DNA from: Botryllus schlosseri
Lineage: Eukaryota
Direction: 5' to 3'
DNA: 64,000 nt
Assembly (NCBI GenBank): GCA_051294905.1
Contig: CM119372.1
Span: forward strand, 5,396,001-5,460,000
Position 1 is the first letter of the stretch. Every line of letters begins with the position of its first letter. The notes under the pieces are model-generated. The model saw nothing but the letters and a program-made list of their open reading frames with translations, was not told the DNA's origin and did no database searches. Of this stretch, positions 3,001-39,867 are shown piece after piece. The translations under genes were made by a program, and so were the position numbers.

Positions 3001-4659
3001 GACGTTTCGCAAGTTGTAGACCCTTCCTCCATTATAGTTGGGATTTGGCGGGTGGGGCTTGAGGCAGACTAGCTTTGGAATCCAAATTAAACCATTGTTG
3101 CTGTGAAATGTACGACCCCTACTTTCCAAAGCCTGACTACACTTACGTGACTTCTCATTCGTCTCCGACATCAGCGTAATCCAGTAGTACGTGGTGTTCG
3201 CGCCTTTTACCGCGACCTCGCATGCCACTTCCGTGCAGTTCTTTGCTGGACTGCCGAACGACCCCAGGCCGGATTGCATCATGACCACGACGGAAACGTA
3301 AACGGCTGAAGGAAATTCAACATTTTTCAAAATCTGGTACGGCCATGGCTTTTTTTGATGCATCTGGTGTATATATTGCATCAGTGGGGACGTCATAATA
3401 ATCCACGAATATATCAGTTGGGCCGGTGTCTTGAAAACCGCGTATAGATCAGTTACTATGAAAATGTCAATGTACGAAGTAGACGACCAGACGTCCGTCA
3501 TAAAATGTGGTAAATTCGTCTATAGATCTCTTTGCTGTGAGTTATTATACAATGATTTGCCTTGTAGAAGTTTCAATGATTATACACATCTGGCGCTTGT
3601 TTGTCCGTGTGCTGTGTAGGCTACCCAGCACCATAGCTCATAAAGTATCAAGTTAACATTCATTCATTCATTCTGTTCTACATGTCGTGTCCATTGTGGT
3701 TGGTTAGCTCGTTACCAACCAACATATCTTTTTATTGACGCCACAAAACTTGCAACAAGTTTAATTCTGCTTACGAATTAGGCTGCTGTCTGTGGTATTC
3801 ATTGTGTTTTACCACTGCAATGATTATTTACACCAGGACGATATTCTTTATTATGATTCCGCATTTGCCGACTGGTAGCACGGCCTACTTCTAGGTATTT
3901 CAAGACACCGCTTACGCGGATCAGATCACGAGGCTAGATAAACCTCCGACACCGTGGAGTGGGTATTGAGGCGATATCTCGCCCGGCAACTTTGTCAGTC
4001 GGTTCGCTGACACTGTTTCGAAACTATCCGTTTCCGCAAAACTTTTAGCGTGCAACAGCAAGTTTAAAACTTACCTATTGTCAGCAAGTATCTCTCCATG
4101 GTCCCAGTGCTGTAAAAACTTGACGAAATTGTCAAGTATCCTCGCCAAACTGAAATATATATATATCATGAGAATTGCCTAAGGATGCGTCCATTCCTAT
4201 TACGGATCAACGCTCGCGGGATTACACGTCGACAGGGTTTATGTAAATCATATCGGTTCAACCAGGGCCACATTTACCGACGCTTATCCTGCAGCCTAAT
4301 CGTGCAAGCCAATCGCATAATTACACTGACATTACGTCGATGTCATCAGATCGTGTCCGCCGTGAAAAGCTTCAAGTTCACCGTCGGGGACATCGAAATC
4401 ACGCGGGTCGTTCAGCCGCCAGAGAAGAAAGGAGCTCTGTTCGGTTTCCTGCTATATTCGGACGACGTCAACAACGCCAGGGTCTGTCGAAAGTGAACAC
4501 TTCTAGTTGCCAATTTGCGATACTGATACACCTTTTCAGATCGGCGCGCAATTGGAGACGAAATCGCCGGGCAGCTTCGCGGTGCAATTGGCCAGCGCGG
4601 TCGCGAACTCCGGCGGAACTCTGCGATCAGTCCGATGTAGGCTGAAACCGTCTTTATGA
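1..4659 (+). CDS. 3' portion of a multi-exon gene of unknown function (5' end outside window; exon chain only partly resolved)
   Basis: Phase-compatible GT-AG exons 1-78 (AAGKNTEMMVVHVLYTELNGKPVNY), 695-758 (SSLGNIQSSETKRLSGIIKPK), 833-877 (FPLSWQVTFSCNGKR). Strongly GC3-biased exons 4350-4481 (IVSAVKSFKFTVGDIEITRVVQPPEKKGALFGFLLYSDDVNNAR) and 4539-4659 (IGAQLETKSPGSFAVQLASAVANSGGTLRSVRCRLKPSL*). Linkage between the two exon groups is inferred, not shown. Confidence 0.5.
998..1690. mobile_element. Truncated copy of the TAGGGCGATTTTTT-terminated MITE (family A)
   Basis: Starts tagggcgatttttt and is colinear with 9595-10270 over ~700 bp; right end missing. Confidence 0.8.
1699..4099 (-). CDS. 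Secreted cysteine-containing protein (~191 aa), 5 coding exons, antisense within the plus-strand gene
   Basis: Exons 4099-4075, 3305-3147, 2205-2088, 2024-1886, 1833-1699 join with GT-AG introns in phases 1,1,2,0. Product: MERYLLTIAVYVSVVVMMQSGLG (signal-peptide-like) SFGSPAKNCTEVACEV...YYWITL...DLQLCL...EICTPKECPSEGEDCVPVTCDKPVVK...PICQQ*. AATAAA overlaps the stop. Last exon is less certain. Confidence 0.7.
3808..3985 (-). mobile_element. SINE body fragment (same family as 50880-51114)
   Basis: Shares gccgactggtagcacggcctacttctagg..gacaccgcttac.cggat..gctagataaacct with 42413-42588 and 50880-51060. Confidence 0.7.
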
Positions 4660-7232: not shown

Positions 7233-10200
7233 CTAACTCAACAGCTCGCATTTGAGCTGCGTCAACAGCTCTAGCGACTTTGACGTCGCGTCGGTCGAGA
7301 TCCGCGAATCGGATGAAGATTTCGAGTCCGGATTTTCTTTTCCACAAGCGGGGCGATTGTCGCTACATTTGCTTGAAGCCGGCGTCGATTGCGACTTGAA
7401 ACCCAACGGCATTGGCGACAAGGTCGATCCACTCGCGAACCCTGGCACGACGGAGGACGCTTGCTGGATTCCGTATTTCCTCAGGACGCGGTCGATGACA
7501 TCGTCACCCGATTCTGTGAGCAGAAACTCGGACGTAACAACTCTGCTCGAATGTGATTCGAGCACTAACTCTAACGATTCAAGTAGTTAAGGATGATCTA
7601 TTCGAACAGCGAAAAAACTCCTCACAATGCCAAATTTTAGGCTGATTTTGAGGGGTTCAAGGACGACGAGCTAAACATCATTTAGATTTTCGTAATCAGC
7701 TTTCGATTGATATCAAGTTATCAAATTTCGCCGCTCGGCAGGACAGTCTAAATAAATGGTGCCGTAAATTGCTTTTGGTCAAATGGAAATAATGACGTAA
7801 CCAAATCGCAGTGAGCCGTGAAATTTGTTTGTGTCCACACCATTGTAGGACACGATGATGGAATCCTCAAGTCCTTGATTGGTCGTACCGCACCACACGA
7901 TACATGCAGTGCAAAGTTACGCACGTTAGTAGAAACCCCACATCTGTGATGTCTTGAACAACTCGCATCATTTTCAGTGCAATGAAACAGCCATGGTCAA
8001 AAAAATACCATACCATCTTCAATGCGATATAGAAGTGGCATTACGTTCTTTGCAGTGGATCATAAAAGGGACGTATTTGACCTTTCCACATCTTTACCGA
8101 TATCACTTCACAATGAGCGATACTCGAGTAATTGACTCGAAGCCTTATACTAGATGGAAAATCGAATTACTCAGGCACTCAATTTTCCATAGCCCTAGCT
8201 AATTACCTTGATTGTCGCGTTCCGAGTCTGCGCGTGGCGATTTCGGAGGCTTGGAAGGGGGATCTTCAGCATATTTCGCTTGTGGAAATACGACACCCAG
8301 CCTTGGTTTTGTTTTTGGCTCTTAAAAATGGATAGCTCGTTAATCGGAGATATTTGAAGAGCGTGTTGGAGGTCCAGAACTTCAGAATACAATTGAATAA
8401 TATATTCATATAGAAATAAACCCGAATATTTTCGGCTGACACTTGTCAGGGGTAGTCGTCAGCAACAACTAGTAGAGAATTGAAAAAAGCATTGTATATC
8501 AACGCAAACAATCATATCGAAAAGATACCATATTTGGTGATAGGATTGTTGATGTACAACGTTCTTTTCAATTCTCTACTAGTTGCTGACGATTACCCCC
8601 GACTAGTGTCAGCCGAAAATATTCAGGATAATTATAATATAAATATATTATTTAATCGAAGGTAGGAAAAGACTTCATGGGTCTTACGTTTTCTTTGCTC
8701 CGTTTGATCTGCGTCTTCGTCGTTCATTCTGGCTGACAGACCTGCGACAAGCGAACAAGGTCATAAAGTGCTTAATGGTGTGCAGAAGTGGTCGAAGCAG
8801 TCATTGCTAGTATTCAAGAAGTAGTAACGTCTCAATTTCGACCCAAGTAGAGTAAAATGGAAGTATTCTAGGCCTAGTTTTCCCTAAAAACGGAAAACTG
8901 TCAGCTAGAATCAGAACGATAAAAACTTGCGAATGCAGTCCATGACTTCATATATACACGAAAATTTTTGTTTTGATAGTATTTTCCACTGCAGAAGCCT
9001 TAAAACCTCGATCGGTTGTATCGTAGCGTACGAAACATGTAATACAAACCACAAAGCTACAAACGTTAGTGTGAACGACACATCTGTGAAGTTGTGATCA
9101 AATTACAGCATTGTCACAAGGTGTAATGAAACCGGCTTGGTCGAAAAAATGCCTAGTATTGTTTATTGTAATGCAGAACTCGGATTGTATTCTTTGTGGT
9201 TGCATAAAAGGTAAATACTGTAACTTCCTTTCAAGATCATTCATACTGTCGTGACGTTATAATCAGCAACGGCACCATAACGAAATCTCAGTGTCCGACA
9301 ATGCCTGCTCTCGTGGCCGCAACATATATCTCTCCCATTCGATATTTTACCTTTGTCAGCATTTTCCTTGGCGTCGCGAAGCTGCGGGTGCGATGTTATG
9401 TGAGCTATCACTGTATTTGAGGCGTCCGATTCGCCCAGCGCGGATATGGCGCGAACATGGACGCGGTACTCCGTCGAATGCCTCAATCCTTCCAGCAAAG
9501 CCCGCGACTTTTCCCCGCCTACCATGCCTTTTGGGTGTCCGTTCACGTAGATTCTGAACGAGGCACAATCAGTATACAATGTAATAATAATAAATAGGGC
9601 GATTTTTTTGACCTTAAAAACAGGAGATTTTGACCTAAAAATTAGAATTTTTACATTCTTTGACCTTGAAAATCTTAATTTTGACGAAATTTGACCTAAC
9701 CTATGCCAATTAGGTGTTTTCCCACATAATGTTAGAATGGTACTACTTATCTTTGTTTAGGGTTGGAACTGTCTGCCCTTACGAAGTAGTTTCGTCTGAA
9801 AGAAAACCTTTTTTGCCTCAAAGACTGACAAATTTTTATGCGAAAAAACTTTATTACGAAATCTGACCCTATGAAGAATTCCAGCAGTCTACGCATTATG
9901 GTAGAAATTATTTAAAAAATTTGTAGTTCAACGAAAGATAGTTTTCTACAGAAAGTGTCTGTCCTTACTAAGTAGCTTGCCAAGAATGGAGAAATAACGT
10001 TCAACAGCAGCAGTTGTTGGCTGACAACACGGAAGTTGTGCGTAAACTGCTGGCGCCAAACCGTAGTTGCTTCATTCTGGCAATGGTGTCTACATCACAA
10101 TTTTTCATCATGCGGTTCTTGATATAAGAACCATGCAATGCCCATGCAGTCTTGCTTCAGTTAGGATGTTGCGGAACGTCGAGCGTAACACCATGTCAAC

Positions 10201-13200
10201 CTATCTGTTTCATTTGAATGTTTATGATTCACAATGAGCAGACAATGGGCCGTCTGTCTACAACGGTAGGCCTATAAAGTAGGCTACAAGCTGTAAAATG
10301 TCAAATGATAAGCTCATCGACAATGCAAAATGTACGATACAAACAAATTGCAGGTTGCAAAAAAGTTTTAACTTTGTAAAATATTTTGACCTAATTCTGA
10401 CTTTTTTTGACATGTCGAAAAAAATCGCCCTAATAATAATATATTGATATGGAAATAAATCCGAATATTATCGACCGACACTCGTCAGGGGTAATCGTCA
10501 GCGACTAGTGGAGAATTGTAAAGAATTTTATACATCAACGATTCTATCACTAAATATGACAGGGACGGCATAGAAAGTTTAGAAATTGAGGCCAACAGAT
10601 GGCTTACTGCACTATTTTTACACATAAACTCAGACAATTGGAGAATTAAACTAATTAGAGCCAAAATTCCCGTAATCTAATGGTAATCTAAAATGCTTCT
10701 ATGCTAATTCCAGTTCTAATCTAGTGTCTGGTTTCCTGTAAATGTTACAGAACAGAAGAACTGAATAGAGCGAAACGAGCTTGGCTCTGATTTCATGTGT
10801 ACGGCGCTTGATTACGTTGCATTTTGATCTAATTAGGGATCTTAATCAATTACTAGGTTTTTGCAAATTCAGCAATTCTGATCTAATTTGGAAATTTTAT
10901 TTTATTCAATTTTCTAGTTGTCCAAGTCTGTATACTAGGGTCGTTCAAAAGTCACTTTTTTCCCCGGATTCCGGGCTTCACTGCTTAAATTCTCGGGCTG
11001 TCTAAAAAAGGCTGCATACCAAATTTGGCTCAATTCCAACCGGCAGTCAGTTGAAATTTTATATTTATTAAAAATATTTTCAAATTGTACAGTCAAACCC
11101 ATGGAATTGTTGAGTTTGCGCACAAAAACGACGCAAAAGAAATTTTTGACGCAATTCCAACACAAAGAAGCGAAGTTACTTGAGTTTTACATCGGTAATT
11201 CAGGGATTACCCACCATTCAAAACTATTTTTGCAAAACCATAACTTTCAAACGCAACGACTTCGCTTCTACCGGTCGGAAGTGAGCAAAAATTGTTCTGC
11301 ATCGTTATTTTAGCCAACAAACTCATGGGATTGACAGTAAAATTTGAAAAAAAGATTTTTTTTTTTACTGAATTCAAAAATTTCAATTGGCTCTGCTGCG
11401 GTTTGTACTGGTTTGAATTAAGCCAAATTTGGTGTCCATCGTGTTTTTAGGCCACCTGACAATTTAATCAGTGAATGCCCGGAATCCGAAAACAAAAGTT
11501 AATTTTGAACAACCCCACTGTACACACACACTCCTCTTATTGGCACAAACTAAGTTGGCGGATTTTGATTAAACTTCGACTCCAGTACACACAAATGAAA
11601 CAATGAATGGTCACTCCAACACAACCAATTACAATATAATTTTCGAATTTCACAATCCATCCTACCTGTATCCGACAATCTTCTCCACTTTGGCCTCTTG
11701 GCCGTGTTTATCGTACATTTTCGACGGGTGCCAACGCAATATCACGCTGCTGTGTCCAGAGGAATTGGCTACCTCGCTTACCCCGGCCCGCAAGGCATGG
11801 GGTGGCGTAGGCACGCCCGGCATAGGGGCCGACGCAGGGTCTCTGGGGGTTTGACGCCTCATCACGAGTCTCATCGCCTGCAATTGTAACACGGCGATGC
11901 AAAGAGTTGGATAGTGAATGATGGTAGGGAACGGAAATTTTGTTTCTATTCTACTTCAACAGTATTTTGACGTTGAAATACTAAATTTTGCATACTTTAT
12001 ATTGTCAACATGTCAAATGAAGTATATTTTGGAAATTTGACACCACACGACTGACGCATACAGTCGATCACTTTTCGCACCTCGACTCTTCAGAATAGAG
12101 ACTTACCTTTTGATTTTTTCTTCTCTGCCCGGGAAGGATGTTCAACTTGTGAACGAGCTCCGGGTTATTAACAAACATTTCTCGGACTCCAAACACTTTC
12201 GGAGGCGAAGTCTTCTTGAGTTTGGTCTCCGACGATGCGATACCCTCCATTAGTTTCTCGTGAGGAGTTAGCGTGTCAGGCGCCGGCAAAGACAGGGTCC
12301 TCCGCGAAGCCTGTAACACAAAACAAATCATAAATAAATCGCAACCCCCCAATCGCGACAACTTACCGGTTTCAGCCTGGACCTCCATTCCTCGGAATTG
12401 ATGTCGGGAAGCACCATTTCTTTGAACTTCTTTTTGGCCACCATCTCCTGCTCCTTGGAAATCTCCCTGGCCAATTTCTTTCGACTCGCGTTCCCCGACT
12501 TGGCGAGCGTCATCGCGTCTTCCACTTCCGCGAACAGCGACGAGCACACGCACAGCGAGTTGACCCGAGTCTTGGCGTGACGGTCTTCGCAAAACTGGAA
12601 AAGAGCACATGCTCGCGAGTTTGCGGATTCGGTTAACTTTACCACCGACCATTGTTATGTTGCGTCATGTCACATGTCATATCGAGTCACAGTGTATTTT
12701 GACTTGAGCCAAGTCAAGTCGCTCGAATTTTGGGGTGACTCGGCTCAAGTAAAGTTCTTTTGGTGTGTTGAATAGCATATTCATATTGAAATTATCCCGA
12801 ATATTTTCGGCTTACGCTCGTCAGGGGTAATCGTCAGTAGATAGTTGGAAAGAACATTGTATATCAAGAATCATATCACAAAATATGACTATCATGAAAT
12901 TTTGAGTATTTGGGGCAAAGAAAGCGCTTTAAGCTAAATGGTAAACTCCTTCAAACTCCTTCTGTCGACACAGACTTGGTCGGCGTATTTTGATACAAAT
13001 CGACTTCAAGGCACACAAATGAAAAGGTGGACGACCTCTCCAGACGACGCGAAATCTGTCGTCTCTGTAATTTTTCGCACAAGCAGAATTATACAATTGA
13101 TTAGTATATTCGTATTGAAATGAACCTGAATATTTTCGGCTGACACTCGTCAGGGGTAATCGTCAGCAACTAGTAGAGAATTTAAAAGAACAGCGTATAA

Positions 13201-16200
13201 CAACAATCGTAGCACAAAATATGACGTCACCAGCACGAAATGTCGAATACGAGAGCGTTCAATGTACTATTTTTAGATGATACACGAAATCTTTTTGACA
13301 CAGCCTTGGCTGGTGTATTTCGATAAATTTGACAAGCAAAATTTTGACAAGTGTACCACCCCGTTACAGTGACATACTCACCGATATTACTTGGTCGATA
13401 TCCGCCCTTTTTTCGACGTCGTCCTGCGACATATCGACCAGAAGCGACTCCAGCTCGTCTGACAGTTGCGGGGCTTCGTCTGCGCTCATTTCCCAATCAG
13501 CTGCTGACCAGAGCACCACCGACAAGCTGAACACCGACGACTGAAACCAAGATATTATGTGTAAAGTTAGTTGTCCGAAAGCTGTTGGTCTTTGCATTGA
13601 TGCAGACCGAGTTGTCCCTGAAGTAGCTTAACAGGCGTGACGGCTTTGTAGTCGCTCAAACGAGAGAGTGACATAAGAATAGACATTGCGTAATTATTAT
13701 GCAATTATCATAGTATGCACAATGCGTAGAATGTAGGGTTACCATCAGTGTTGCCAACTCCGGATGGAAGAAAATCGCTAAAACTGGTGTCAAAAATCGC
13801 TAGATGTCGCCAAATATTGAGAAAAAAGCGCTAAAAAATAGCGCTAAATCTACATTCATTGCTAAAGGTGTTAAATTGAACCATTATTTCAATGCATTCT
13901 TCTCAGCTATATTTCAGTCGTCTGGGGCCAAAGTCACTTACCATATTTTTAGTTCATAATACGTAATATAGTCATCTCTAAGCGGGACAAAACGAGTAGT
14001 GCATTTCGATAAAGCAGATCGCTTTGCGCAATGATCGCTATACGTGACTGCTGACCAGGTTTGCAGGCATAACCGCGGAAATGCGCTTGACTTCTTTTCT
14101 AAACTGTGTTGGAGTACTTGAACACGACATGCGACTTGACACACTTATACACGACATGCGACTTGACCCGACACTACACGACATGAACCGGGTTTGCCAG
14201 CCGCTATAAGTAGAGACATTGAGAAAATAATCTGAGGACCAGCCCGGGGTATGAAATGTAATTAATCTAGTCCTGAACCAAAGCCAGTGTCACACTGATT
14301 CCGACAACACGAACTAAATTCTTGTCAAGACAATGGAACGACCTCAAAGCAGCCCCCAAAGTCTGAAAATCGGCATTGATCAGAACAATCGCTGGACGAA
14401 ATTGGTCATTGTTATATTCAATGTGTTGCAGCGGTGCCATTGTTGGAGCAATGCCGGTTCTCAAACCTTTGCCGGCTCTCAAACCTTGAGGGCTATTTCG
14501 GGGTGCATGGTTCCATTGTCCGGACGAGACCCCACTTCGTATTCTCGAAATCACCGCGAAAACTATCTTTCGATCATGGCCAATTATATTAAATTTCAGC
14601 GCTCAGGTCGCCAGATGTAGCACTGCCAATTATGCTACTCAGCAAGAAGAGACACTCTTTGCCCATGCGTAACCGCGAGGAGTTGCGTATCTCTACTATC
14701 CAAAGTCACTCAACTATGACAAATCGTCCGAACGTATTTTCATGGAGCAAGAAATGTTCCACAACTTGATGTTATGTCAGCCAAAACTTATCTTTATTGG
14801 TTATTTCCGGTAAAAAAAAGCGCTAAATAATCGCTAAATACTTTTTCAAAAATCGCTAGATTCATCGCTAGGCGCTAGATCCATATTTTTTGGCGCTAAA
14901 CCGGATGAAAAATCGCTAGATCTAGCGCTAAAATCGCTAAATTGGCAACACTGGTTACCATACGTCCTCTTTTAAGAGGATTTGTCCTCTTTTTTGACTT
15001 TTTTGAAAGTGTCCTCGGAGGACGCCCTCTAGTCCTCTTTTTTGAAAATTTAGGTCAGATTTAGAGCAAATTGCGAGTGATATGCCGTAAATTAGGACAG
15101 AAGTGACGCTCCGGCGGGTATTTCGGACTGAAAAACGGTGATTTTAGCTCTGGGCGGAAAAAAGATCTTTTTTTTTTTTTAGTCATCCACCTAGCAATGC
15201 GGAAAGAAAAACGGTATTTTGAGCTCTGAGCGGAAGAGATGACCTTTTTTTTTTTTAGCCAACCGATCACAAAGTGGGAAAAATTCACGGGTTTTTGAGA
15301 ATTCTTCTCTGGTTTTGCAAGACTCAAATTTCTGAAAAAGTGTCCTCTTTTTAGATTTTCAAAATATGGTAAGCCTGGTAGAATGTGGTATTGTAAGCTT
15401 CATAACAGATATAGCGGCGTTAACTTAAGACCATATTATGTTGCCAGCAACTAGCAACTGTAACCACTTGCGAATTTTCAGTGAGATTGGCCGAGTGGCG
15501 GTGCCGCTAAAGCCAGGCACCGTGGTGGGCAAAGTCGTCACTCTGGCACGAGCCATCAAACCCCCAAATCAGGTGTTCTTGCCTACCAAAAAATGCACGA
15601 AATTCTTAATGGTAAGATAGAGATACCATATGTGCTCTTTTAAGAGGATTTGTCCTGTTTTTTCATTAAATCAAAAAGGTTCCCCGAGGATGCCCATATA
15701 CCCTTTGTTTTCGCAATTCGCAATTCTTTTTTGAGTGTAAGGCGACTATACAGAGATGACCAATAGAGGTCGACGCCTCCATAAAATACACGTGATAATT
15801 AGCTTTATCTGGAACTGGCAAATAAAAAGGTCCACTGTCCGCGGATGCCAGATTCGAGGTTTTTTTTAGTCAATCTACCGGGTGATCAGCATTTTCACCA
15901 TATTTTATAACATATTTCCCTCTTTTTGTAACTTGAAGAAAGTGTCCTCTATTTGGACCTTAAATATGGTAACCCTATGTAAGGTAACAATTGATGCATA
16001 AATATGATTGGCACAGGTTGCGTCCATGACTGCTGCTATATCCCCTAATGCAGTGCTATTCAAAGGTTTGGTTACAAAAGTACAATTAAATAAAACACGC
16101 ACTGATTACCTTGACAGTCGCCGGATGCCTTTTGTCGAGCACTTCCGGAGCGAGATACATATCGTCAACTTCCTCCGAGTTGGTGTCTTTGAACTCAACG

Positions 16201-19200
16201 CGGCCGTCTTTCCGCAAAAACGCGTTCTCCAGTGCAAGATATCTGAGAAATGGTTAGCAGTGTTGATTTAGGAGGTATTGTATGTAGACAGGGTTACCAT
16301 ACCGTGTTTATTTTTCAGATTTGTCCTTATTTCGAAGTGCTGTGTCTCAAAAAAAAAACGCACCATCCTTATTTCTAAGATTTGTCCTTATTTTGAAGTG
16401 CGGTGTCTCAAAAAAAACCACACCAGCCTTATTTCTAAGATTTGTCCTTATTTTGTCTTAGTTTTCGACACTGAGATCGTGACTATGATTAGACGAAAGT
16501 GATGACCATTTTTTAGCCATCATCTTACCACAAAGGGGTGTGAGTAGATGATATCAGGTGGCGATTGTACACTTTTTTAGTCACCAGTTCACAAATTTCA
16601 CGATTAAACTACTGGTTTTTGGTTGACGATAGTAACCCTGCAGGTAGGTCTGATTATTCAAAATTTCATGCCGGTGACGTCATATATTGCGATACGATTG
16701 TGAACATACAATGTTCTTTCCAATTCTCTACTAGTTGCTGACGATTATCTCCGACCAGTGTCAGCCGAAAATATTCGGGTTCATTTCAATATGAATACAC
16801 TATTCAACCGTAGGGTAATATTTTTTTAACAAACAAGATACTTTCAATATTTCATTTACACTACACGAAACCTTGGTTATCTGGATCTCGGCATCGAAAA
16901 ACATGTTGCTAATATTCACGGAGAGCCCTTGCTGTCAAGTAATGATAGAACCTCACAGTGGTCTCAAAGCGCTACGAAATGGTGATGGTCCAGAAAGAAG
17001 AAATTAATTCGGATGGCGTGTAAGTGGCAACATTTTGCGGCCGCGTAAAGGTACATACTCGAGCTTTTAAATTCATTAATACTGTTACAAAGTCATATTA
17101 GGCGGTACTGGGATATTCGATTCGAAGCTTAATACTCGGCTCGGAGTTGAATCCCCAGCCGATAATTGCATGGTTGAAAGTTTGTATAAATTTACATTAG
17201 CACGGATCATCACCAGGCTACAAGTTACGTCAGGAACATATTTACAAATATAGATTTGTGTAAACGACTCACTTTTTTACTGGCTTATTCTTTATGAAGT
17301 GCCCGGCCTGCTCACAAATAGCCCACAGCTCGTTCTCCGACAGCGCGGATTTCAGTATCGAGAGAGCGTTCTGTGAAGGCACTGTAAGTAATTGGAATTT
17401 CACAATAGAAACGGAGTGTTTCACCTTTAACGATATCCTGGGCACGTCGCCTCGGGCACTAAGAGCTGGCTCAGGAGCGGACTGTAATGTCTCAATCCTT
17501 TCGATTTCGGCCAGCTTCTGGTCGGGCGACACTACTGATGCGTCCTGAAGCTGAAATTGATAAGCAATTTTGATGTTGATGGTGGTAAGTGGAAATAAGA
17601 CATGGGACCAGCACCATTACAAATACACGAAACAGATTGAATAAAATCTGTAAATATAACCTTTCCCAATGACAAAAGTAGAAACATTTTGTTTTATCAA
17701 TATCCCAAGAGCTTCTTGGAGGTACATAGCTGCAATATACAATTGAATAATATATTCATATTGAAATAAACCCAAATATTTTCGGGTGACACTCGTCAGG
17801 GGTTATCGTCAGCAACTAGTAGAGAATTGGAAATATATTGAATATATTTTGCGATACGATTGTTGATATGCAATGTTCTTTCCAATTCTCTACTACGATT
17901 ACCCCTGAAGAGTGTCAGTCGAAAACGTTCGCCTGATGAAAACGAAGAGGAGTAACTTACAACTTGGCTATCAGACGCCAATTTCAGTTCGTCCTGCTCG
18001 GAAGCGTTAAATCCGACCGGGGCCATCTTTTCCGTGAACGAAAGCATTGCTTCTTGCAATTGCATAACCTTTGAAAACGAGCGCATGTGTTAACAAAACA
18101 GTTCCGACACCTGATCAGAATTAGCGGTCGCTTGTTACCCTAATCCTAACCATCACCTAACCCGAATATATTAATGCATATATACAATATACATATTCGG
18201 CGCTAGACTGTTGATAAACATAGTCCTTTTGAATTCTCTACTAGTTGCTGGCGACTACCTGTGACAAGTGTCAGCGTAAAATATTGGGTTTACTTCAATA
18301 GGAATATAAGAAGAGCTTCTTGGAGTTAGAGGTATAGAAATTAACTGTACAATTGAACAAAATATTCATATTGAAATGAACCTGAATATTTTCGGCTGAC
18401 ACTCGTCAGGGGTAATCGTCAGCAACTAGTAAAGAATTGGAAAGAACATTGTATATCAACAATCGTATCATAAAATATGACGTCACCAGCATGAAATTTA
18501 GAATTTAAGAGAGCGTTCAATGTACCATTTTTAGATGGTACACGAACTCCTTTTGTTGACACAGCCTTGGCTGGTTTATTTTGACGAAAGTTGACTGCAA
18601 GGCATGCGGTGTGCTCATAGGCTATTCAGTGAAATTTTCATTTTAGAATATATTAATACAATATTGATGCATCACTATCATAATAATAACAGTTATTACA
18701 TTTCTAAATACCAAATTCAACATGCCGAATTTATCAAGTGCGGTATATCATAATGCACTGATAACCGCGATCTCCAGTTACCTGTTCTTGCAAGACGTCG
18801 ATGGTCTCTCTCATTTTCACGTTTTCTTTACGAACGAGAGACGAATCGCCTACTTTTCCCTGCCCGGGTTCTTCTTCCGCAGAACTATGTGCCGGATTCC
18901 TACACGGAAACCAGAAACGCTCGGTGAAAAATCGACAACGGAGCCAACCGGAAATAAAACTCACCCCTCTCCGTCAGTGACCAGGGTGCCTCTGCCTTCG
19001 TCTGTGTCCTCCGCGGCTTGATCGCGTTTGCATTCCGTAACAGGCTTCTCGTCTCGGACTTCTTTCCAAGACGCGTCAGCAATTTTCTAAGAATAATGCC
19101 TTATCAACGCGATAATGCACGCGAGATCGAACAAAATTTTCGAAAAATGTTACTAAAAAGTGGGCAGTCCTTCAAAACTTTATTTTCTGTGAGCACAACT

Positions 19201-22200
19201 CTTTAAAAATTCAAGAGATACGTTAATTCACTTGGATTAAAAATTCACCGAGACACAAATGTAATAATCGCATAATTTTCCGAGTAGATTTGCGACAGGG
19301 GTTCCCGACCAGCCCTTTTCATGATAACATTTGATAAAATTTATCATCTCCAAAAACACTAGAACAGCAAACTAATTCCCTATCCAGATATTATCAGAGA
19401 AAAAATAAGCTCAAACATCACATTAACTGAATATGCCATAACTAATTAATGTATTGTTTGTGTATTATCATGACTCGAAACGAAATTTTCAAGTCAATTT
19501 CAAGTCATCAAGTAATCGGTATCGACATGTGTGAGCAACCAGTCATGTAACTGTTGTACACAGCCTCGTAAGTCAGTAAGTCACAAATAAATTGCCCCGA
19601 AACGAAGTGATTAAAGCTTTCGTTGTAGTATAGGCTACTACTAGTACAGTTCTACCAATAGTTCAGTGCTTTCGGCTCGGTGCTAATCTTAACGAACCCC
19701 TTGCATAATTTCAATCGGATAGATATATAGTGTTATACATCTATATTGCTCGTCAACAATTGGCACAGGCTTAAAGTGTGGGTAGGTGGGTGATGGATTG
19801 TGTACTGCATCATATCAATTGGTTTCAACTTTCTGAAGTTTTATGTTTTGTTTTCTATTTGTCGGACAGTTACCGACGTGGCCTAGTAGTTTTACGTATA
19901 TGCGAATCGTACAATGCCCCGTTGAATGTGTAATTAACCCGATATTCGCAACTCGATTAACAATTAATACTAAATCAATCTGTACTTCAACTGTCTTGCA
20001 AGATGCAATGGCTTGAATCTTGCCTCTAACTTTGTGACTTGACTTGACTCGAGTCAAAATATACAATGACTCGAAGGTATTGACTTGATCCCAACACTGG
20101 CCGAAGCTATATGTATGGAACCTACACCACAGCACAGACAAAGCAGCCTCTCTTACTTTCGGTGGAGCTGCTTTTTCGTCGGAAGAATCCGCAGAGTCCG
20201 AATCCTCGTCGTAATTCAAGGCGCCGCTCTCAGACAAACGTCGCGGAGAATTTGTTCGCAACACGCTGGCTTGAGAGGACGGATTCTTCGCGTTCGCCTT
20301 CTTAACGTTACGTCTCGGAGAGCTCGACTTACTCCTCGGTCGCCTTGTAACAAAGGAGCTCATAGCAGTCGGCGTTGGTACTCAAGTAGCGAGTAAAGAA
20401 GCAAAACCGTAAATTTCTATTCGTCACAAGCAGCAGCAGAGATATCTAAGACACGTCAAAACTAATTGCAGTAGGAAACAAAATTTACACGAATTCTTAA
20501 GAAAAAGCACTGTTTTGACATATCACTGCATTAAACAATCCGTTCTGCAAGTCATGAATATATTTCAACTTACCGGTCAGACCTTTTCCGACTTCTGTCG
20601 TCGACTTTATCGTCACCTGTTCGTTTCTGGACCATCCTAGAAATCCACCCGATACAATGACATGAGTGTGCTCTCAAAATTTCATTACATCATACCGTAA
20701 CTGCGACCAGATATATCGAATCGCTTCCGTTTGCAAGTCTCTCATTTTCTTCTCGGTATCCAGACGATCTTTCAAACTTTGCACTTCGTGACATAACACG
20801 CTGCGTTACGTTTGAAACGTATTCAATCGCGGACTTGTTAAAAAATGGCGATATCACGACACAAATCGTTTTGAATACCTTATGTATTGTTCCGCTCTTC
20901 TGGACCTCAATTCCTGACGAATCTCCACCACTTTAGGGTCTAGTTTCCTCGTCTTATACCCTCTCCATATTGCCTGCGATATTCGTTCATTAGAAGACTG
21001 TCACATATAGTAACGAGTGATCTTACTTGAATTTTAGTGGCCGCTTGTACGTGTTTCAAATCGACAGGCAGCTCTGATAACAGATAAACATCATTACACA
21101 GGTCGAAATTAAGGTTAAAATTAATAATGCGAGTCAAGTGTGGAGAGATGATTTCGTGAGTACTGAAATTATACGTTCCTTGCCAGTAAAAGTTGATTTA
21201 TCATCGAAAGTTATAGTTTTGAAGTGGTTGTATTTTCCACTGTGGTTGACTTGAAAATCCGTGGTGGGTTGCACTTATTTCTCACAGGAGTTGCGGTAAA
21301 AAGTTGCACTTAATTTTCACAAAAGTTGCACTAAAAAGTTGCATTTGTGGGCAAGTTCCTTGAAATTATGAGGGTATGAGATACCCGAATCGCTCCGTAT
21401 GCAAGGCACTGTAGCAAAACTTAATGTCGGTGACTTCAACAAAATCAACAGCCTGAAAAAATTGACTTGGTGAAATATAATTTTCGGCAGTCTGGCCTGA
21501 ATGTCCGTCAAACCAGAAAGGACCTCAAATCTAAACGGCAGTGAAATAATCAAGCGGCCTATTTACATATAGTGTCAAATATTTCCAGTAAAAAGTCGGT
21601 TGCGCAAAAAATCGAAAAAACTAGCAAAAAGTACTGCGTCATGATAGGCGATACTCGAATTCGAGCAGAAGCTTAAAAACTCAACTCGGAATCAAATACC
21701 GCAGGGACTCGATTTTGATCAGGCCTAGTCGGACATAAAGAAGAAGAGATTATACTTAGGGGAAGAGTTTGCAACTTTTTTTTACAGCTTCCGCCAGCTT
21801 CCTAAATACTCGTGTGATATGTAGAATGCTGCTTTAAGCTGTTCGAAGGAATCTTATAGTTCAACTTTTGTCCATTTTTTTTTTACATGCAACATTTTGC
21901 AACTTTGTAGATTTTGGTGATGTACACGGCCAAATTCAACTGAAATTCAGTAAAATAGCACTGAAGTAACGCTCTTACGGGTATTTCGGGAGCTGAGCCG
22001 GAAAGTTGACCTTTTTTTTTAGTCAATCAATAGAGAATGCGGACGGAAAACTGTATTTCGGAAGTGGAGCTGAGAAGTTGACCTTTTTTTTTAGTCAACC
22101 GAGCAAAATGTGGTCTTTTAGCGCAACTTTTTGTGAAAAAATAAATGCAACATTTTACTGCAACTTTTTTCAAAAATAAATGCAACTTTCCACGGATTTA

Positions 22201-25200
22201 ACTGCAACAAAAACTTGCTCTAATTATGACCAAAGTGGAAGTAACCATATCATGTTCAATATTGATTACCTTTCTTTTGCTCTGTTGGAAGTTTAGGCAA
22301 GGCGTCTTTCGGGCTACGACGTACAGGCACCGGTACTGGAACAAACCCGACAAAACGACATTATCAAATGTGAATTTCAACGAAGAATTCAGCCACTCAC
22401 TCATCGTGCCGTGCCGTTTTTGATTGGCTTCCACGTTACACTGTATCTTCGACGGCTGCTTGGTCACGCTGGTTTTTGGCCTGCCTTTACTGCAACAATT
22501 ATGGTAATCAGTTATAACAATGAAGCAGATATAAGCTATAGCTTATCAGTTTGTTAATAATATAGACCTTCATCGATTCAATATTCTGAATGATTGTAAC
22601 GTAAAAACTAAAAATAACCGTTTAAAGGACTTGCAGCTAACTGCCATCCAAATCTATCAAGTGCGAACGTACAAACACAAGCTTTTATTAGAAGAGCTTC
22701 TTGGAGGTACCACTGAATAGTATATTAATATTGAATATTTTCGGCTGACACTCGTCAGCCCGACGTCACTCGTTCAATTCTCTACTAGTTGCTGACGATT
22801 GCCTCTGACGAGTGTCAGCCGAAAATATTAGGGTTCATTTCACAATGACTAAGCTTCTATTAGCTATTATTAAACAAATTCTATCATTAGATAATACTAC
22901 CACACCCGCCTATAGGTCTAATACCACTTACTTTGCTGAAATAATGGTTGTCAACATGTGAACATGTGAACCAATGAAAAACACCACCAAAACTATCCCA
23001 ACCCTGAAATTGACCCTTACATCTATCGTAACCCCAACCCTAACCTAATCCTAATCTGACCCTAACCTGAAATTCAACCTGCATGCTCAAGTGTTAGATG
23101 CCCAATTGTCGCATGCTATTATGTAGCATGCTTAATACATTAAAATTGAGATTAATCCAACTTATGTTTCTGCACCATGTCATAATATAGAGTTCATGGC
23201 CTACTTTGGAGTTAGCGTACGTCACAACGGTGCGATGATATGGCCTACAACTCGTTTATGAACAGCAAATGTACAATAATTACAGCTGTGTTGAAACATG
23301 TACTACCGCAAATAAAGTCAGAATAATCTTACCTTGATGTTGGTTTCGGTGTAGGATACGGCACGACGGAATTGTGACTTCGTCGCAAGTAAGGCCTGGG
23401 ATAAGGTTTCGGAGGAGGGCAGTCCGAGTCTTGGTCCTGTTTTTCACCGTAAAGAGACTTTTTCAAGCCATCGTCGAGAGGTTTGATCGGTCTCATGTCG
23501 TACTCCTCGTACTTGGTAGGCAACGAGCAATCCAATTTCGAGTCTACGGCGAATAGGCAAGCGCAAATTCAGTTGCAAGAGGATTAGAGCAGTACTTTTC
23601 AAGCGCAGGCCCGCGCACCAGCGATGGTTAGTGTCAAATATACTGCCAACCAGCCATACCAACAGACAACAATATCATAGCTCGATTGCAAAATGCAAAA
23701 AGTTGAAGGGTTGGGAATTAAAGAAATGAAAGATAAAATTTTAAATTGATTCGAGAGACTCTTGGAGGTACAGAACTTCAACATCCAATTGATCAATACA
23801 TATTGAAATAAAATCTGATTTTCCCACATTATGTCGTAGCCTATTAGCTAGCCTACAACTAGTTCAAGACCAGTTGTACATGAAAGCTGAAAATCTAAAT
23901 TTTCGTCAAATCTGGACAGTACCATTTAGAGACATTTGGCAGTGTAAGAGAGGCTGCAAAAAGCAAAGTTCGCAGTTCTTTCAAAAGAAACTAAACAATC
24001 AGCCTTTAACGCCTCGCAGAAACTACAATAGAACCACACATAACATGTGTATCGTGAGAAAGGCAGCAGCAAAAAAACATCATCGAATCAAAGATTCCAA
24101 TGTTGGCCTTTGAGTTGTGTGCCGAAAAGGTAGAGAACCACTGAATTAGATAGAACATCCGCTCACCATCGCAAGGATGCAGAGGTTGAAAATCCGTGCT
24201 GTTCACCAACGTGTTCATTTCCGAACGTCGCAACGAAGCAGGCGAGGGCGTAAAATTTGCGGAAGCCGGCGCGTACACATTTTGAAATCCGGTCGAGTTC
24301 TCCAGAGAATCTCGCTCGGCTGGGCTGAGAGGATACTTTTTCGTGTACGCCCGCGCGACGATTGGATCGTAAACGTAACAGTATTTGTCGCCGCCGCCAG
24401 AAAAATCTGCGGTGCGGCGCAAATGCTCATTTGATGTGCGAATGGGGATATCAGATTTTCGGAAACCGTTATCGTGTGACCTGGATCCCTTTGGAATGTA
24501 CGACACGTCGTTGCCTGAAAGGAAGAACAGCGGAGTGCAATTAGCCGGATTCAGTCAGTGGTCAGTATCTAAGTACTTCAACTTTTATGGAGTAATCCAA
24601 GCGGGTTTCGACGGCTTTCACTCCTTAACTCAAGTGTTTATGATTTTACATCACTTCCACCTCTACCTAACAGATTTAAGCGGGGTTTAATGACTTGAGT
24701 CATGATTTTTTGGTGACTCGACTTGACTCAAGTCATTTTCTCAAATGCGTAAAATGACTCGACTTGAGTCAATTTGTACATTGACGAAATTGACTCGACT
24801 TGTTCTCAAGTCATTGTGCATGACTCGAATCAAGTCATATGACTCATGACTAGGACGGCCAAGACAGTCATGTCATTGTAACTTCTAGGAATAGTAAAGT
24901 CACCATATGATTGGTATTTCGTCTATTAGTCCTGATACTTGGAAAATAGAGCCAGAAATTGTTAAGACTGAGGAAGATTACGATATGATGAATGCAAGCC
25001 ATTCTATATCACTCGAGCAGAGTTCATTCACTTGGACTCGGACTTGACTCGAGTCAAAACTATAAAAGTGAGATTGACTTGTGACTCGGAACCTTGTGGC
25101 TTGTGACCAGCTGTGTAATTAGTCAATATGCATCACGGACATACATCTTGCAGCTTTTCGAAAAGTACTCACCTTCGATCAACTGCTAGACGTATGCGAC

Positions 25201-26667
25201 CTCACGAACGAATCTACTTCTAGCAACTAATTGTTCTGGTAATTTTCATACTTTCATTATCTACTTCCACTTGAAATAATTTCGACATGTCTTGCAAATA
25301 TCAACTCGTAATGGAGCGGCGATTTATGTCGTGACTTCTACTTAATACCAACGCTGACTACTTTGACAACCTCTGTGTGGCACACAAACCGACCGCACCT
25401 GGAATGAATTCAGAATTTGAAGTCAACAGTCCCGACTCTGCATGGTCGCCTGAACCGTTTTCCGCATGAAGACCATTGTTCTTTAGCGCCGTTGAATGCT
25501 CCGCACCTTTACCCGAACAGCTCTGCAATGTGACAACCCGGTTATATTAATTTACAGGGACATAACGATGGCAATGCAGTACCATAGAATCATCCGAGCC
25601 GACTTGAGAGCCCAACCACGCGTGAACTCTTCTGCGTTTCTCTTTTCCCGATACGCGCGCGTTCACGGGGAACACGGGCGAGGTTGACCTGCGTCACAAA
25701 GACTCGCGTTGCAGTGATTTCACAAAATTGATCGTAAATTTCTAACCCGTTATCGCCGGATCCAGCCATTTTGAGATTGTTCCTGCCGTGCCGCGGGGAA
25801 TATCCGAGCGATTTTGTTTCTGTACAAAATTTTGGTACCGGTTAGGTGTTTGCTAGTAGTGCTAGTAGTAGTTTGCTAGTAACTTTTTCTTCAAATTTAA
25901 CTGACTTTTAGGTTAGCTAAAAAACACTGCACAACAAATTTGGCTCAATTTCAACTTGTCGTAGCAAAACTACAGGAGTTGGAAAATTTTTTGTATAATA
26001 AATAATAATTAAAGAATTTGCCACCATAAACAGTTATTTTATTAAAATCCAAAATTTTGTGCTCCAGTAACTTCCCTTCTACTGGCCAGAATCGCGCCAA
26101 ATTTCTTACAAATCGTGTTTTTAGACAACTGAACAATTTCACAGGATAGAAAGAGCAAAATCGGGGAAAAAACTTATTTTTATGTATTAAATTTCACATT
26201 TGTAACTCCTGTAGCTTAGCTGCTACACGTTGCAATTTAGCCAAATTTGGTGTACGGCTTTTTTTTCCAGCCAACCTAACAATTTTATCGAATAGCCAGT
26301 AAATTTTGAACAAAAAAGTTATTGTTGAGCAACCCTCCACGCTTGTTAGTGGAAATCACATATCTGTGATGTGGTGATCAGCCCACAGCATTGTGACATA
26401 GTGTGATACAATAGGCATAGCCGAAAAATACCAAACAATCTATAATGTGATGTAGAGCTGACATTACGGTACATTCTTTTTAGACGCATAAAAAGTACAT
26501 ATTTCAAATTTCCACGTGTCATAACGTGTGATACTCAATACTCCCCTACTCTAATTACGTTAATAATAAATCGTACTCATTTTTTCTTGCTCTGCATGAA
26601 ACTGATGTAGTTGTTCCTTCAGTCTTGCCCTGTCAACCCCTTTGCCGGAGTCATTGGCGAATCGCTC
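7233..26667 (-). CDS. Large multidomain protein (>=1170 aa, 24 exons): CEP97-like IQ/coiled coil, KIND domain, 2x WH2-like, FN3
   Basis: Exons 26667-26577, 24514-24167, 23543-23333, 22489-22401, 22335-22270, 21073-21027, 20973-20879, 20800-20696, 20636-20574, 20343-20157, 19086-18965, 18899-18782, 18068-17961, 17544-17425, 17370-17273, 16242-16110, 13540-13382, 12594-12367, 12310-12107, 11877-11666, 9553-9351, 8741-8688, 8320-8207, 7570-7233. All GT-AG, every junction phase-compatible, 3513 nt open to a TAG. True start unresolved: either the ATG at the end of the first listed exon or further upstream exons. Confidence 0.85.
9595..10432. mobile_element. Complete ~840-bp hAT-type MITE (family A)
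   Basis: TIR tagggcgattttttt / aaaaaaatcgcccta; flanks ataataaa / ataataat (7/8 TSD); second copy at 998-1690. Confidence 0.85.
10938..11515. mobile_element. ~580-bp MITE, probably Tc1/mariner type
   Basis: TIR gggtcgttcaaaa / ttttgaacaaccc with long imperfect internal symmetry; TA on the left flank; related partial copies at ~25880-26336 and an end at ~51540-51566. Confidence 0.7.
12190..12440 (-). other. Two tandem Spire-like WH2 actin-binding motifs
   Basis: KFKEMVLPDINSEEWRSRLKPA and TPHEKLMEGIASSETKLKKT (amphipathic helix plus LKKT-type motif), linked by SRRTLSLPAPDTL. Confidence 0.65.
12796..12827 (-). ncRNA. Putative minimal type I hammerhead ribozyme (intact core)
   Basis: Minus strand reads ccc-CTGACGA-gcgtaagcc-GAAA-atat-TC-ggg: full core, palindromic loop III, stem I ccc/ggg. 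Confidence 0.65.
13125..13156 (-). ncRNA. Putative minimal hammerhead ribozyme (intact core)
   Basis: Minus strand ccc-CTGACGA-gtgtcagcc-GAAA-atat-TC-agg; first stem I pair mismatched. Confidence 0.55.
13734..15377. mobile_element. hAT-type MITE family C interrupted by a second hAT element
   Basis: Ends tagggttaccat / atggtaagcctg with perfect 8-bp TSD gtagaatg; gtcctctttt subterminal repeats; near-identical to 61679-62045. Confidence 0.9.
13746..14953. mobile_element. 1.2-kb non-autonomous hAT element
   Basis: TIR cagtgttgccaa / ttggcaacactg, perfect 8-bp TSD gttaccat, many aatcgcta/agcgcta subterminal repeats at both ends. Confidence 0.92.
15620..15978. mobile_element. Diverged MITE family C copy
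   Basis: accatatgtgctcttttaagaggatttgtcc ... aaatatggtaacccta. Confidence 0.75.
16289..16640. mobile_element. MITE related to family C with an internal ~60-bp tandem duplication
   Basis: Ends cagggttaccat / atagtaaccctg; unit ccttatt..gaagtgc.gtgtctcaaaaaaa..cacca.ccttatttctaagatttgt repeated about twice at 16326-16455. Confidence 0.7.
17902..17931 (+). ncRNA. Putative minimal hammerhead ribozyme variant
   Basis: ccc-CTGAAGA-gtgtcagtc-GAAA-acgt-TC: N7 changed and loop III changed to another palindrome; 3' arm of stem I truncated. Confidence 0.5.
18381..18412 (-). ncRNA. Putative minimal hammerhead ribozyme (intact core)
   Basis: Minus strand ccc-CTGACGA-gtgtcagcc-GAAA-atat-TC-agg. Confidence 0.55.
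20696..21073 (-). other. IQ motif plus CEP97-like coiled-coil segment (3 exons of the large gene)
   Basis: Spliced: VQAATKIQAIWRGYKTRKLDPKVVEIRQELRSRRAEQYISVLCHEVQSLKDRLDTEKKMRDLQTEAIRYIWSQLR. Fits IQxxxRGxxxR; the downstream pattern resembles the post-IQ region of CEP97 (recalled, not searched). Confidence 0.75.
21255..22199. mobile_element. ~945-bp non-autonomous TIR element
   Basis: TIR aaatccgtggtgggttgca / tgcaactttccacggattt with multiple aagttgca/tgcaactt subterminal repeats. Confidence 0.7.
22802..22833 (+). ncRNA. Putative minimal hammerhead ribozyme (intact core, NUA triplet)
   Basis: cct-CTGACGA-gtgtcagcc-GAAA-atat-TA-ggg; inverted partner at 22733-22758. Confidence 0.6.
24690..25100. 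repeat. gactcgacttgactc-motif repeat family (MITE remnants)
   Basis: Clustered gactcga/gacttga/tgagtc motifs; similar clusters at ~12685-12750, 19470-19515, 20035-20075, 42885-42910. Confidence 0.6.
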
Positions 26668-27949: not shown

Positions 27950-29450
27950 ATGGGAACTAGCTCTCACCATTTAACGATGATGCGATATGAAAGTTGGGTA
28001 CATTTAAATCATTCCATTTATTTCATCTCAATCAGCATAAAATTGCAACTAAAATCATTGTAATGATTGTTCTAGGTAGGATGGTGGTAAATATCATTGC
28101 GCATCAAATTTTAATAATGTATGACCATCAAACATTGTCATTAGCTAGCACCTTAATGGTTCTTCAGATCCAGGCTCCGATCATTACTGATCGATTGATG
28201 CTTCGGTGGAATTCAAGCTCTATTTCAATATCATACAGCTGGTCAGTTCGCTAATAAATTAGTCTTCCATTATTTCAAAATGCTGAATGACTGTAATGTA
28301 AAAAATTAAAATAAACGTTGAAAGGACTCACTGGACTCAGAACTAGCTGGTATCTATGTCTATCAATTGGGAACTTACAAATGCACAGGTTTATATTAGA
28401 AATCACATCAAAAACTTACACACTATCTGTAGGCTTAGTACCATTCGGCTAAAATGGTATGACCATTTTCCCCAATCCCCAGTCATCAACGTGAGAAATA
28501 GACTCTTGAAGTGATGCATGTGGCAATATAAATTTAGGTTAATCTTCCATACAAGTGCTCACCATCTTGAGCAATTTTCCCTGTGACCATTCACCGGCCG
28601 TGTAACCCGTGAGTGACCTTCAATTGATGTTAGATTTGGAGGGTCACAAATATCTGTGTCCAGTGGATTAGGGTGAAACAGAGAACCACAACTCTAACTG
28701 GGTTCGTACAGGCACGAATATGTATGCCATGTACCGTACCAAGTGCCAAGCAGTAATTCTCACAGTCCCATATTATTGGGTAACACATAATCCGTAATTC
28801 TAACGGAAGTTAGTGACATGAGGTATCGTAAATTTCTCTATAATGTGAATGTATCAAAGTGGCAAAATCTTTCCATGTTGGATATTTTCCACTGTTAAGT
28901 GATATGTTGTTGTTATGAAGTTTCACACCTGTGGGTAAAACCAAAAACGCTGGAACCCAGATCTGTACTATGGTGCATCAAATCAGTGAATTATTTGCTG
29001 CTGCTTGCCATTGCATACGTCATTTTAAATCTAAACTTTGACTACGACATCTCTGCACAAATTAAGGGACGGTAACTATAACTAACTGACAGTTCAAAAC
29101 TACAATATAGTATATGTGCTTCTGAGTTTGACTCCAACAAAGAGTCATTCTTCAGTATCAAATATTATGATATGTTACCCTGACCCTAATTTATATATTT
29201 GATAATTTCCGAATAGGGGAATATCATAATATGATATTATCATCAGGCGCGTAGAATTGAAGACAGCTCACCTCAACCCCCTTTTCATATTCGACTTTTA
29301 AAATCCCTTTCCTTTGTTTTGGAGAGATCACTCTACTTATTCATTATTCTGAATGCATTTGCAAGTTGTTCATACTCTTTCTACACAATGTTGTTGTTCA
29401 CTGTGTTAACGACCTGAATCTTCACAATTAACCATTCGTCAAACTAAATT
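27950..29450 (-). pseudogene. Decayed envelope-glycoprotein-like reading frame (tentative)
   Basis: Stop-riddled minus-strand translation gives a heptad-like stretch (VVNTVNNNIV*KEYEQLANAFRIMNK), Cys-rich middle pieces and a distal hydrophobic segment (AMIFTTILPRTIITMILVAILC); no splice structure. Confidence 0.3.
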
Positions 29451-38030: not shown

Positions 38031-38805
38031 AAATCTTGACTTATTAGATTCTTAAATTCACAAGCAACATGTTACTGGCGTACAACCTGAGAGAGCCTCG
38101 CGCCTCACAATTTGGGAGCCACTGATCTGAGTCCATCGATAGCGCAGACAATAATAACCATCTTCCTTCCTAGAACGGAAGGTATTCTATGCAAGATGAG
38201 GGAAGACAACGATTCGAACATGGGGCATACCGCGACGGCTCACAACCGGAGTTGAGCGTGGATATGGAATTGGAGTTTGATGCCAAAGAAAAACGATTTG
38301 AGCGGATTAGGATCGAGTTTGGATCTACGATTTTTGAAGGGGGATTTGAATTTGTACTAGGATATGGAATTTCTAATAATTGACAATTTTCATGCCACGG
38401 TTTATAAAAATTCATCCATTACCGGACTTGGTTTTGGACATGATTCGGACAGTTTTGGATTTGGATTTCTCACTTGGATTTGAACGACAAATTTGGGCCA
38501 AGAGTTGGATTTGAACTTCTTAAATCATATCAGCTACGCACCGCATCAACTACGTAAAGTTAGCGAGAGCAAGTTTGCTGCCGACCACAAGAGATCATAA
38601 TGTCACGGATGTTGACGCAAAAAGATGATAGTGTCTCTGCAACACTTTGTTTAGTTTTCGAGATTCCCGGTGCGTAAAGCCTATCGAACTTCTGTTGCGA
38701 ACGCAGTGTACAAGCTGATGTAAACAATCAAAACCATCCCACCGTGTATTCGGATTTAGGACCACACGCAGACACCTTGACATATCAAAGTCTTACGTAA
38801 TAGAG

Positions 38806-39810: not shown

Positions 39811-39867
39811 GAAGAAGTGCAGCATATAGTAGTTTGTTGGCGAAGTGAGTGCGGAAAATCCTTATGA

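Follow-up and report, generated by a model that had tools for sequence, protein, structure and literature searches.

The grip of centrioles and basal bodies on cortical actin is usually explained by chains of adaptor proteins. CEP97 is described as capping the distal end of the centriole together with CP110 (PMC12620543, PMC3744162), and in Xenopus its knockdown was reported to impair both basal-body docking and apical actin, with the block directly after the IQ motif binding Dyrk1a and Plk1 (PMC8719716). An FN3 domain has been published for nematode CEP97 and is given as absent from the insect and vertebrate proteins in the account of PMC9020716. A second described system is the actin nucleator SPIRE, of which a choanoflagellate form bearing KIND plus a pair of WH2 motifs was reported to nucleate actin 20-fold more weakly than the mouse protein (PMC11231147).

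The locus described here lies on the minus strand, at 7233..26667 of the window, by which we mean the whole 64-kb stretch of Botryllus DNA that was analysed. A minus-strand reading guided by a relative, P0004, yielded a coding model of 27 exons with a 3759-base frame (1252 aa), one terminal stop, no internal stops and GT-AG boundaries at 26 of 26 introns. A preliminary description had counted 24 phase-compatible exons; their strand, order and end points stand, while the count does not. The 3′ limit is the stop at 7233 and the 5′ limit is the splice acceptor at 26667, leaving the 5′ end open; since exon 1 begins at an acceptor, a further upstream exon is still to be accounted for. The start of the last exon, 7513, is taken from a contig joint. 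The coding model is as follows.

Exons 1-5, minus strand: 26667-26577, 25819-25747, 25688-25583, 25522-25399, 24514-24167
Exons 6-10, minus strand: 23543-23333, 22489-22401, 22335-22270, 21073-21027, 20973-20879
Exons 11-15, minus strand: 20800-20696, 20636-20574, 20343-20157, 19086-18965, 18899-18782
Exons 16-20, minus strand: 18068-17961, 17544-17425, 17370-17273, 16242-16110, 13540-13382
Exons 21-24, minus strand: 12594-12367, 12310-12107, 11877-11666, 9553-9351
Exons 25-27, minus strand: 8741-8688, 8320-8207, 7513-7233

The window holds other coding-like DNA on the same strand. At 38800-41400 there are coding-like exons of one or two upstream genes, three of them with no Pfam match; at 1874-3294 there are coding-like segments of a further downstream gene, again three without a Pfam match; and at about 52000-53950 there is a long ORF, which we take to resemble a DDE transposase of the pogo/Tigger type that ends in a zinc finger at its C-terminus.

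The domain order first proposed for the protein (a Pro/Ser-rich region, an IQ motif with coiled coil, KIND, a WH2 pair, FN3 and a Ser-rich tail) is found again, in one frame, in P0004. The features map to the window as follows.

26577..26667, minus strand: exon 1, matching by eye the helix after the LRR region of Phallusia, Ciona and mollusc CEP97; 70% identical to P0004 2-24
22270..25819, minus strand: exons 2-8, Pro/Ser-rich region of low complexity; its short conserved motifs are common to other ascidian proteins
20624..21062, minus strand: CEP97 IQ motif and coiled coil, aa 374-456, exons 9-12; 87% identical to P0004 and 86% to Styela
18009..18829, minus strand: second coiled coil, aa 600-635, also in invertebrate CEP97s without KIND; helix 126-164 of the P0001 model
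12514..17442, minus strand: KIND domain, aa 686-848, exons 17-21, from Pfam, Foldseek and relatives
12287..12456, minus strand: first WH2-like motif, degenerate, with a Spire-type linker, aa 868-905, from alignment and profiles
12203..12280, minus strand: second WH2-like motif, canonical, aa 908-933, from profile and PDB match
12122..12208, minus strand: conserved box after the WH2 pair, common to invertebrate KNDC1
9391..11823, minus strand: FN3 domain in exons 23-24, aa 984-1090, an orthologue of the invertebrate CEP97 FN3
7233..9390, minus strand: Ser-rich tail in exons 24-27, containing two short motifs seen in the tunicate set only

When 19 Botryllus exon stretches were scanned singly against Pfam, KIND (E 1.1e-4 at 13382-13540), fn3 (E 1e-4 at 9352-9552) and IQ (E 0.11 at 20881-20973) all fell below the cut-offs, WH2 was not matched in any stretch, and exon 21 in frame had no Pfam match at all. 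The same three domains pass in P0004 (IQ 22.2 versus a cut-off of 20.3, KIND 38.6 versus 26.7, fn3 31.8 versus 25), a scan in which WH2, LRR, FYVE and RasGEF gave no match, and their earlier assignment is upheld. Within the KIND stretch the HRD and DFG kinase motifs are absent and only an APE-type motif is present. The P0001 fold model is of low confidence overall (pLDDT 60.6, pTM 0.37), with KIND and FN3 alone confident; its six top Foldseek matches are Spir-1 KIND structures, and the top ESM Atlas clusters carry only KIND and KNDC1 names (0.93-0.94).

Perhaps the first question to settle is whether these parts belong to one gene. A search with one KIND exon returned a single protein among 206 candidates, with a cluster that includes P0004, a 1360-aa protein on a 4413-base assembled contig. 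P0004 is 66% identical to the Botryllus model (810 of 1234 aligned positions) and colinear with it over the whole span, and it carries IQ, KIND and FN3 in one frame and in the same order; the Styela protein P0005 is also colinear. A metagenome locus, L001:3552-6140 (+), holds a genomic ORF, 863 codons long and free of introns, in which IQ-coil, coil, KIND, WH2 region and FN3 occur together. In Botryllus itself, contigs from two runs guessed to be RNA include at least 6 of the 26 junctions among the joints and pieces listed, either as contig joints (7513/8207, 8320/8688, 8739/9349) or as adjacent contig pieces (9553/11666, 12309/12366, 23543/24167). None of the contigs among the matches listed bridges IQ to KIND or box to FN3, and the former gap is what speaks for two adjacent genes misjoined, or for a prediction artefact; since P0004, P0014, Phallusia, Styela, Ciona and Clavelina each have the parts in one frame, as does the intron-free L001, such an error is highly improbable. 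The Botryllus locus is one real gene, as had been supposed at the outset.

Raw reads at the locus are swamped by intron repeats. The runs listed as holding the locus include none on record as RNA. From two runs that are on record as RNA, of which 6% and 13% were read, three exon-dense bins had zero depth and one joint was covered by two reads. The introns are full of high-copy short repeats (e.g., 9669-10335, 13004-13670, 14338-15671 and 18340-19006), where contig depth runs to thousands versus below 25 in the exon-dense bins. As for the L001 ORF, the 3.5 kb upstream of it contains no LRR, and it is either a retrocopy or the product of massive intron loss; P0008-P0013, which come from long assembly contigs, are of similar size and may be of the same kind.

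The identity of the gene emerges from its relatives. Of 8000 proteins scored in a search with P0004 430-1180, 14 were returned, including Styela clava LOC120342643, Phallusia mammillata ‘Centrosomal protein of 97 kDa’ and Ciona intestinalis LOC101242116, along with unnamed relatives and mollusc and amphioxus proteins. The three ascidian proteins (for Phallusia, A0A6F9DJ80) are 41-57% identical to the Botryllus model, and the layout IQ-coil-KIND-WH2-FN3 is common to Styela, Ciona, Phallusia and Clavelina lepadiformis (LOC143465086). In 13 scanned relatives, Pfam matched fn3 and IQ in all 13, KIND above its cut-off in 10 and LRR in five; WH2 was matched in one (P0014, 17.7 bits, below the cut-off of 23.1). 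No FYVE match appeared in P0004 or the 13 relatives, in keeping with the first reading that FN3 stands where Spire proteins continue with Spir-box/FYVE. Residues 66-1251 of the Botryllus model align with Phallusia P0006, which is LRR-bearing and CEP97-named, and a search with the Phallusia LRR ranked a Ciona CEP97-like protein at the top, followed by vertebrate CEP97s. In a tree of KIND domains the model groups with P0004 and Styela at 100/99, which most likely makes it a stolidobranch protein.

The CEP97-type IQ/coiled-coil block proposed earlier is likewise confirmed, with exon 10 showing 39% identity to a primate CEP97 and a match to primate CEP97 P0230 at E 1.4e-17. The Botryllus FN3 is 40% identical to the mollusc CEP97 FN3 (E 3e-24). 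Judged by these alignments, the Botryllus gene is the ascidian (tunicate) CEP97 orthologue. The IQ-coil block occurs in 90 of the stored proteins, isoforms and the Botryllus model counted. Of these, 25 have the KIND and WH2 region, and FN3 is present in all 25; another 22 have FN3 without KIND, and the vertebrate-type proteins have neither. A complete intron-bearing CEP97 locus, L003:2966-12175 (+), reads LRR-IQ-coil-FN3, and its coil and FN3 are not separated by a KIND. It follows from the KIND-less FN3 proteins, from L003 and from the published nematode FN3 that IQ, coils and FN3 are CEP97's own and that the KIND-WH2-WH2-box block is an insert. In terms of comparative architecture, then, the ancestral bilaterian CEP97 is LRR - IQ/coiled coil - coiled coil - FN3, with FN3 an old component also present in mollusc and amphioxus proteins, and the tunicate lineage has a block of about 280 residues that follows the second coiled coil and precedes FN3.

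The same FN3 also occurs in divergent relatives at L002:227-1357, L005:1-1407 and L007:3667-5227, which are possibly appendicularian, though this is a guess. L002 and L005 carry the first tunicate tail motif, and L002 and L007 a box-like stretch upstream; no KIND or IQ profile match under E 0.1 was found upstream of FN3 in the three.

A separate matter is that of the LRRs, the best-conserved feature of CEP97, whose absence had been remarked on from the start and is borne out for the 64-kb window. An LRR profile run over 3430 six-frame segments of the window reached a best E of only 4.1; the profile found 8 of 10 control pieces at E <0.1 and eight LRR segments in L003. By tblastn with five relatives, the best E in the window was 0.49 (28619-28693), and no LRR exon was found in the 37 kb upstream of the gene. 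One explanation is that the stolidobranch protein lost its LRRs, left the centriole and became a cytoplasmic or cortical adaptor for actin or microtubules. This would fit the lack of LRRs in the window, in P0004 and in 6 of 6 Styela cluster members, the lack of an LRR-only Styela protein in the best 120 of 298 matches under 917 aa (most of them vertebrate), and the presence of another gene on the same strand about 13 kb upstream. Against it, the Ciona models now current are without LRR, yet an older one has the LRR joined on to that same gene (94% over 374 aa), and a model without LRR can thus be a short form; moreover, the IQ-coil block is kept at 86-87%, and the acceptor at exon 1 calls for an upstream exon. 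We regard departure from the centriole as unlikely; between LRR loss in stolidobranchs and a distant or unannotated 5′ part, the sequence evidence is about evenly balanced.

Turning to the source of the insert, a search of 1.84 billion proteins gave amphioxus KNDC1 as the top non-tunicate match (E 3e-47), covering KIND and the next 120 residues, and the insert is 32% identical to the amphioxus KNDC1 second KIND region over 290 aa. With a tunicate KIND-only profile, the second KIND of amphioxus KNDC1 scored 143 bits and that of Saccoglossus 136, compared with 90 and 72 for unicellular KIND-FYVE proteins, which we read as SPIREs because of their layout and the account in PMC11231147. Human Spir-1 KIND scored 34 bits with profile A2, and Saccoglossus KIND2 140 in a separate comparison. 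A post-KIND profile gave 56-59 bits for amphioxus KNDC1, 54 and 50 for two annelid proteins and 28 and 13 for two unicellular KIND-FYVE proteins. The box is found at the equivalent position in amphioxus KNDC1 (21.3 bits) and in three other second-KIND proteins (9.0, 8.6 and 1.8; shuffled top 1.3), with no match among those listed for two SPIRE-like proteins. In the KIND tree, built from 50 domains hand-picked among the matches of the 1.84-billion-protein search with near-identical isoforms and fragments excluded and no animal Spire row, 11 tunicate rows nest among 20 KNDC1 second-KIND rows at 95/97. These data make it likely that the insert is a copy of the KNDC1 second-KIND region.

A truncated KIND-WH2-WH2 copy of Spire itself would be the obvious alternative, and the preliminary description had called the module Spire-like. 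In fold and motifs this holds, while by score the nearest relative is the second KIND of KNDC1 and not Spire. The phylogeny leaves some room: AU tests on trees without animal Spire do not reject a clade of tunicate and unicellular SPIRE sequences (p 0.13 and p 0.44), a longer-module tree, also with no animal Spire row, does not decide between the donors (52/70), and the second WH2 is nearest to SPIRE-like proteins (27 and 15 bits versus at most 9 for KNDC1). The top PDB matches are also Spire, in lists with no KNDC1-named entry to compete. The much higher KIND scores of KNDC1, the distribution of the box and the report that tunicates possess a SPIRE of their own (PMC11231147) weigh the other way and make a Spire origin distinctly unlikely. 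KNDC1 is thus the likelier donor by sequence comparison, though not proven. Although the insert is flanked by phase-0 introns in the Botryllus model, in our judgement this carries no weight as an exon-shuffling signature, because L003 lacks a corresponding phase-0 intron between coil and FN3.

Spire-like WH2 pairs were also observed after the second KIND in amphioxus KNDC1 (P0034 707-803), which has RasGEF domains, and in the annelid proteins P0035 (665-751) and P0041 (232-320), which have no RasGEF match and are assigned to KNDC1 by the tree only. The first WH2 motif of the two annelid proteins is more canonical than the tunicate one.

Of the two WH2-like motifs originally noted, the second is canonical and matches Spire in the PDB, whereas the first is degenerate, with a conserved proline in the helix and longer spacing in the alignment, and Pfam WH2 did not exceed its cut-off in any protein scanned (P0004 and 13 relatives). 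A 10-sequence profile ranked Drosophila Spire WH2 constructs 1, 4 and 5 of 41 PDB matches (E 1.3e-13 to 2.5e-5), in an alignment that takes in the last part of motif one, then the linker, and motif two in full; the matched construct is presumably WH2-C/linker 3/WH2-D, regarded as Spire's minimal nucleating unit. Exon 22 alone had Spire DDD as its sole PDB match (E 0.27), over the second WH2-like motif. From this resemblance, the second motif probably binds an actin monomer. It could instead be argued that, in the same fusion, the WH2 motifs are passengers and that the protein is a CEP97 scaffold with KIND-box and FN3 as docking surfaces, for instance for a microtubule-associated protein, given that the second KIND of mouse v-KIND is reported to bind MAP2 (PMC2064798). 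KIND, box and FN3 are indeed more conserved than either WH2 (identity to Styela is 72% for KIND and 79% for FN3, 63% for the first WH2 and 35% for the second), and the sub-threshold Pfam scores and atypical first motif point the same way. Inert motifs would nonetheless sit poorly with a linker core, LKP...R.L.P, that varies little or not at all across 13 of 13 aligned proteins (P0004 L980, K981, R986, L988 and P990) and matches the actin-bound Spire construct, and we consider the passenger reading unlikely.

We tentatively propose the following mechanism for a tunicate CEP97 with an actin-binding insert. The IQ/coiled-coil part, in which the post-IQ block is among the best-conserved portions of the Botryllus protein, may well retain the centriole-scaffold contacts of CEP97, and we lean slightly towards a centriole location. 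The calmodulin regulation first suggested for the protein likewise stays putative. KIND would act as a non-catalytic docking domain and the second WH2 would, with fair probability, hold an actin monomer. Together with the linker and the degenerate first WH2, and possibly as a coiled-coil dimer, it could sequester actin locally or, more doubtfully, support weak Spire-type nucleation. In this way the protein would tie cortical actin to the centriole or basal body, a task that vertebrate CEP97 influences indirectly; the basal-body part of the proposal is tempered by a report that GFP-Cep97 was at centrosomes and not seen at basal bodies of Xenopus multiciliated cells (PMC5045295). The N-terminal LRR exons would have been lost in the Botryllus lineage or lie far away. 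Taken as a whole, a tunicate CEP97 whose KNDC1-derived insert links the centriole to actin is, on balance, the explanation we favour. A bolder version, which we hold to be doubtful, has tunicate CEP97 as a centriole-tethered Spire-type nucleator by way of the KNDC1 module, with the LRR dropped afterwards by stolidobranchs and invertebrate KNDC1 RasGEFs being unrecognised actin binders; if true, the centriole tip would have a direct molecular connection to actin.

A CEP97 equipped with a WH2 pair of its own would represent a one-protein version of the centriole-actin link in the sister group of vertebrates. The gene is also a clear example of domain shuffling that has affected a conserved centriole gene, and it directs attention to the WH2-like motifs of amphioxus and annelid KNDC1; should the WH2 motifs be inert, what is left is a lineage-specific annotation correction. 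Neither a KIND-bearing CEP97 nor WH2 motifs in KNDC1 were found described in the literature covered, supplements and most subscription papers aside; tunicate sequences may figure in the supplementary Cep97 orthologue table that accompanies PMC9020716 and among the SPIRE alignments in PMC11231147. The initial view of an unplaced CEP97/Spire chimera needs revision in part: it is undescribed in that literature, but the tunicate CEP97 orthologue was already in databases and its FN3 is ancestral. What is new, on the alignments, is the KIND-WH2-WH2-box insert in tunicate CEP97, in proteins already deposited under automatic names. In passing, nine contigs from viral collections (L008-L016, seven of them named GVMAG) were seen to carry intron-free actin genes, one of which matches solved actins at E 8e-199.

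The Botryllus protein can thus be set beside four known groups. The Phallusia, Styela, Ciona and Clavelina proteins, uncharacterised automatic annotations, share its layout, with LRR inside a single record in Phallusia only. With CEP97 (vertebrate CEP97, C. elegans CCEP-97 and the LRR-IQ-FN3 forms of Potamilus, Branchiostoma and Aplysia) it shares the order of IQ and coil, second coil and, for the invertebrate forms, FN3; it differs in the insert, in tail motifs confined to tunicates and in having no LRR exons within the window. SPIRE has an N-terminal KIND and, behind it, two to four tandem WH2 motifs; the tunicate insert has a KIND, a degenerate and a canonical WH2-like motif and a linker that matches the Spire one. 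However, the tunicate KIND is internal, is followed by FN3 and a Ser-rich tail with no FYVE match, and is far less similar to SPIRE than to KNDC1. Finally, KNDC1/very-KIND is built as KIND-KIND-RasGEF, while the Botryllus protein has one KIND, lacking the first, and P0004 has no RasGEF_N/RasGEF match; yet it is the second KIND regions of the amphioxus and annelid proteins that carry the same KIND-WH2-WH2-box series as the tunicate insert.
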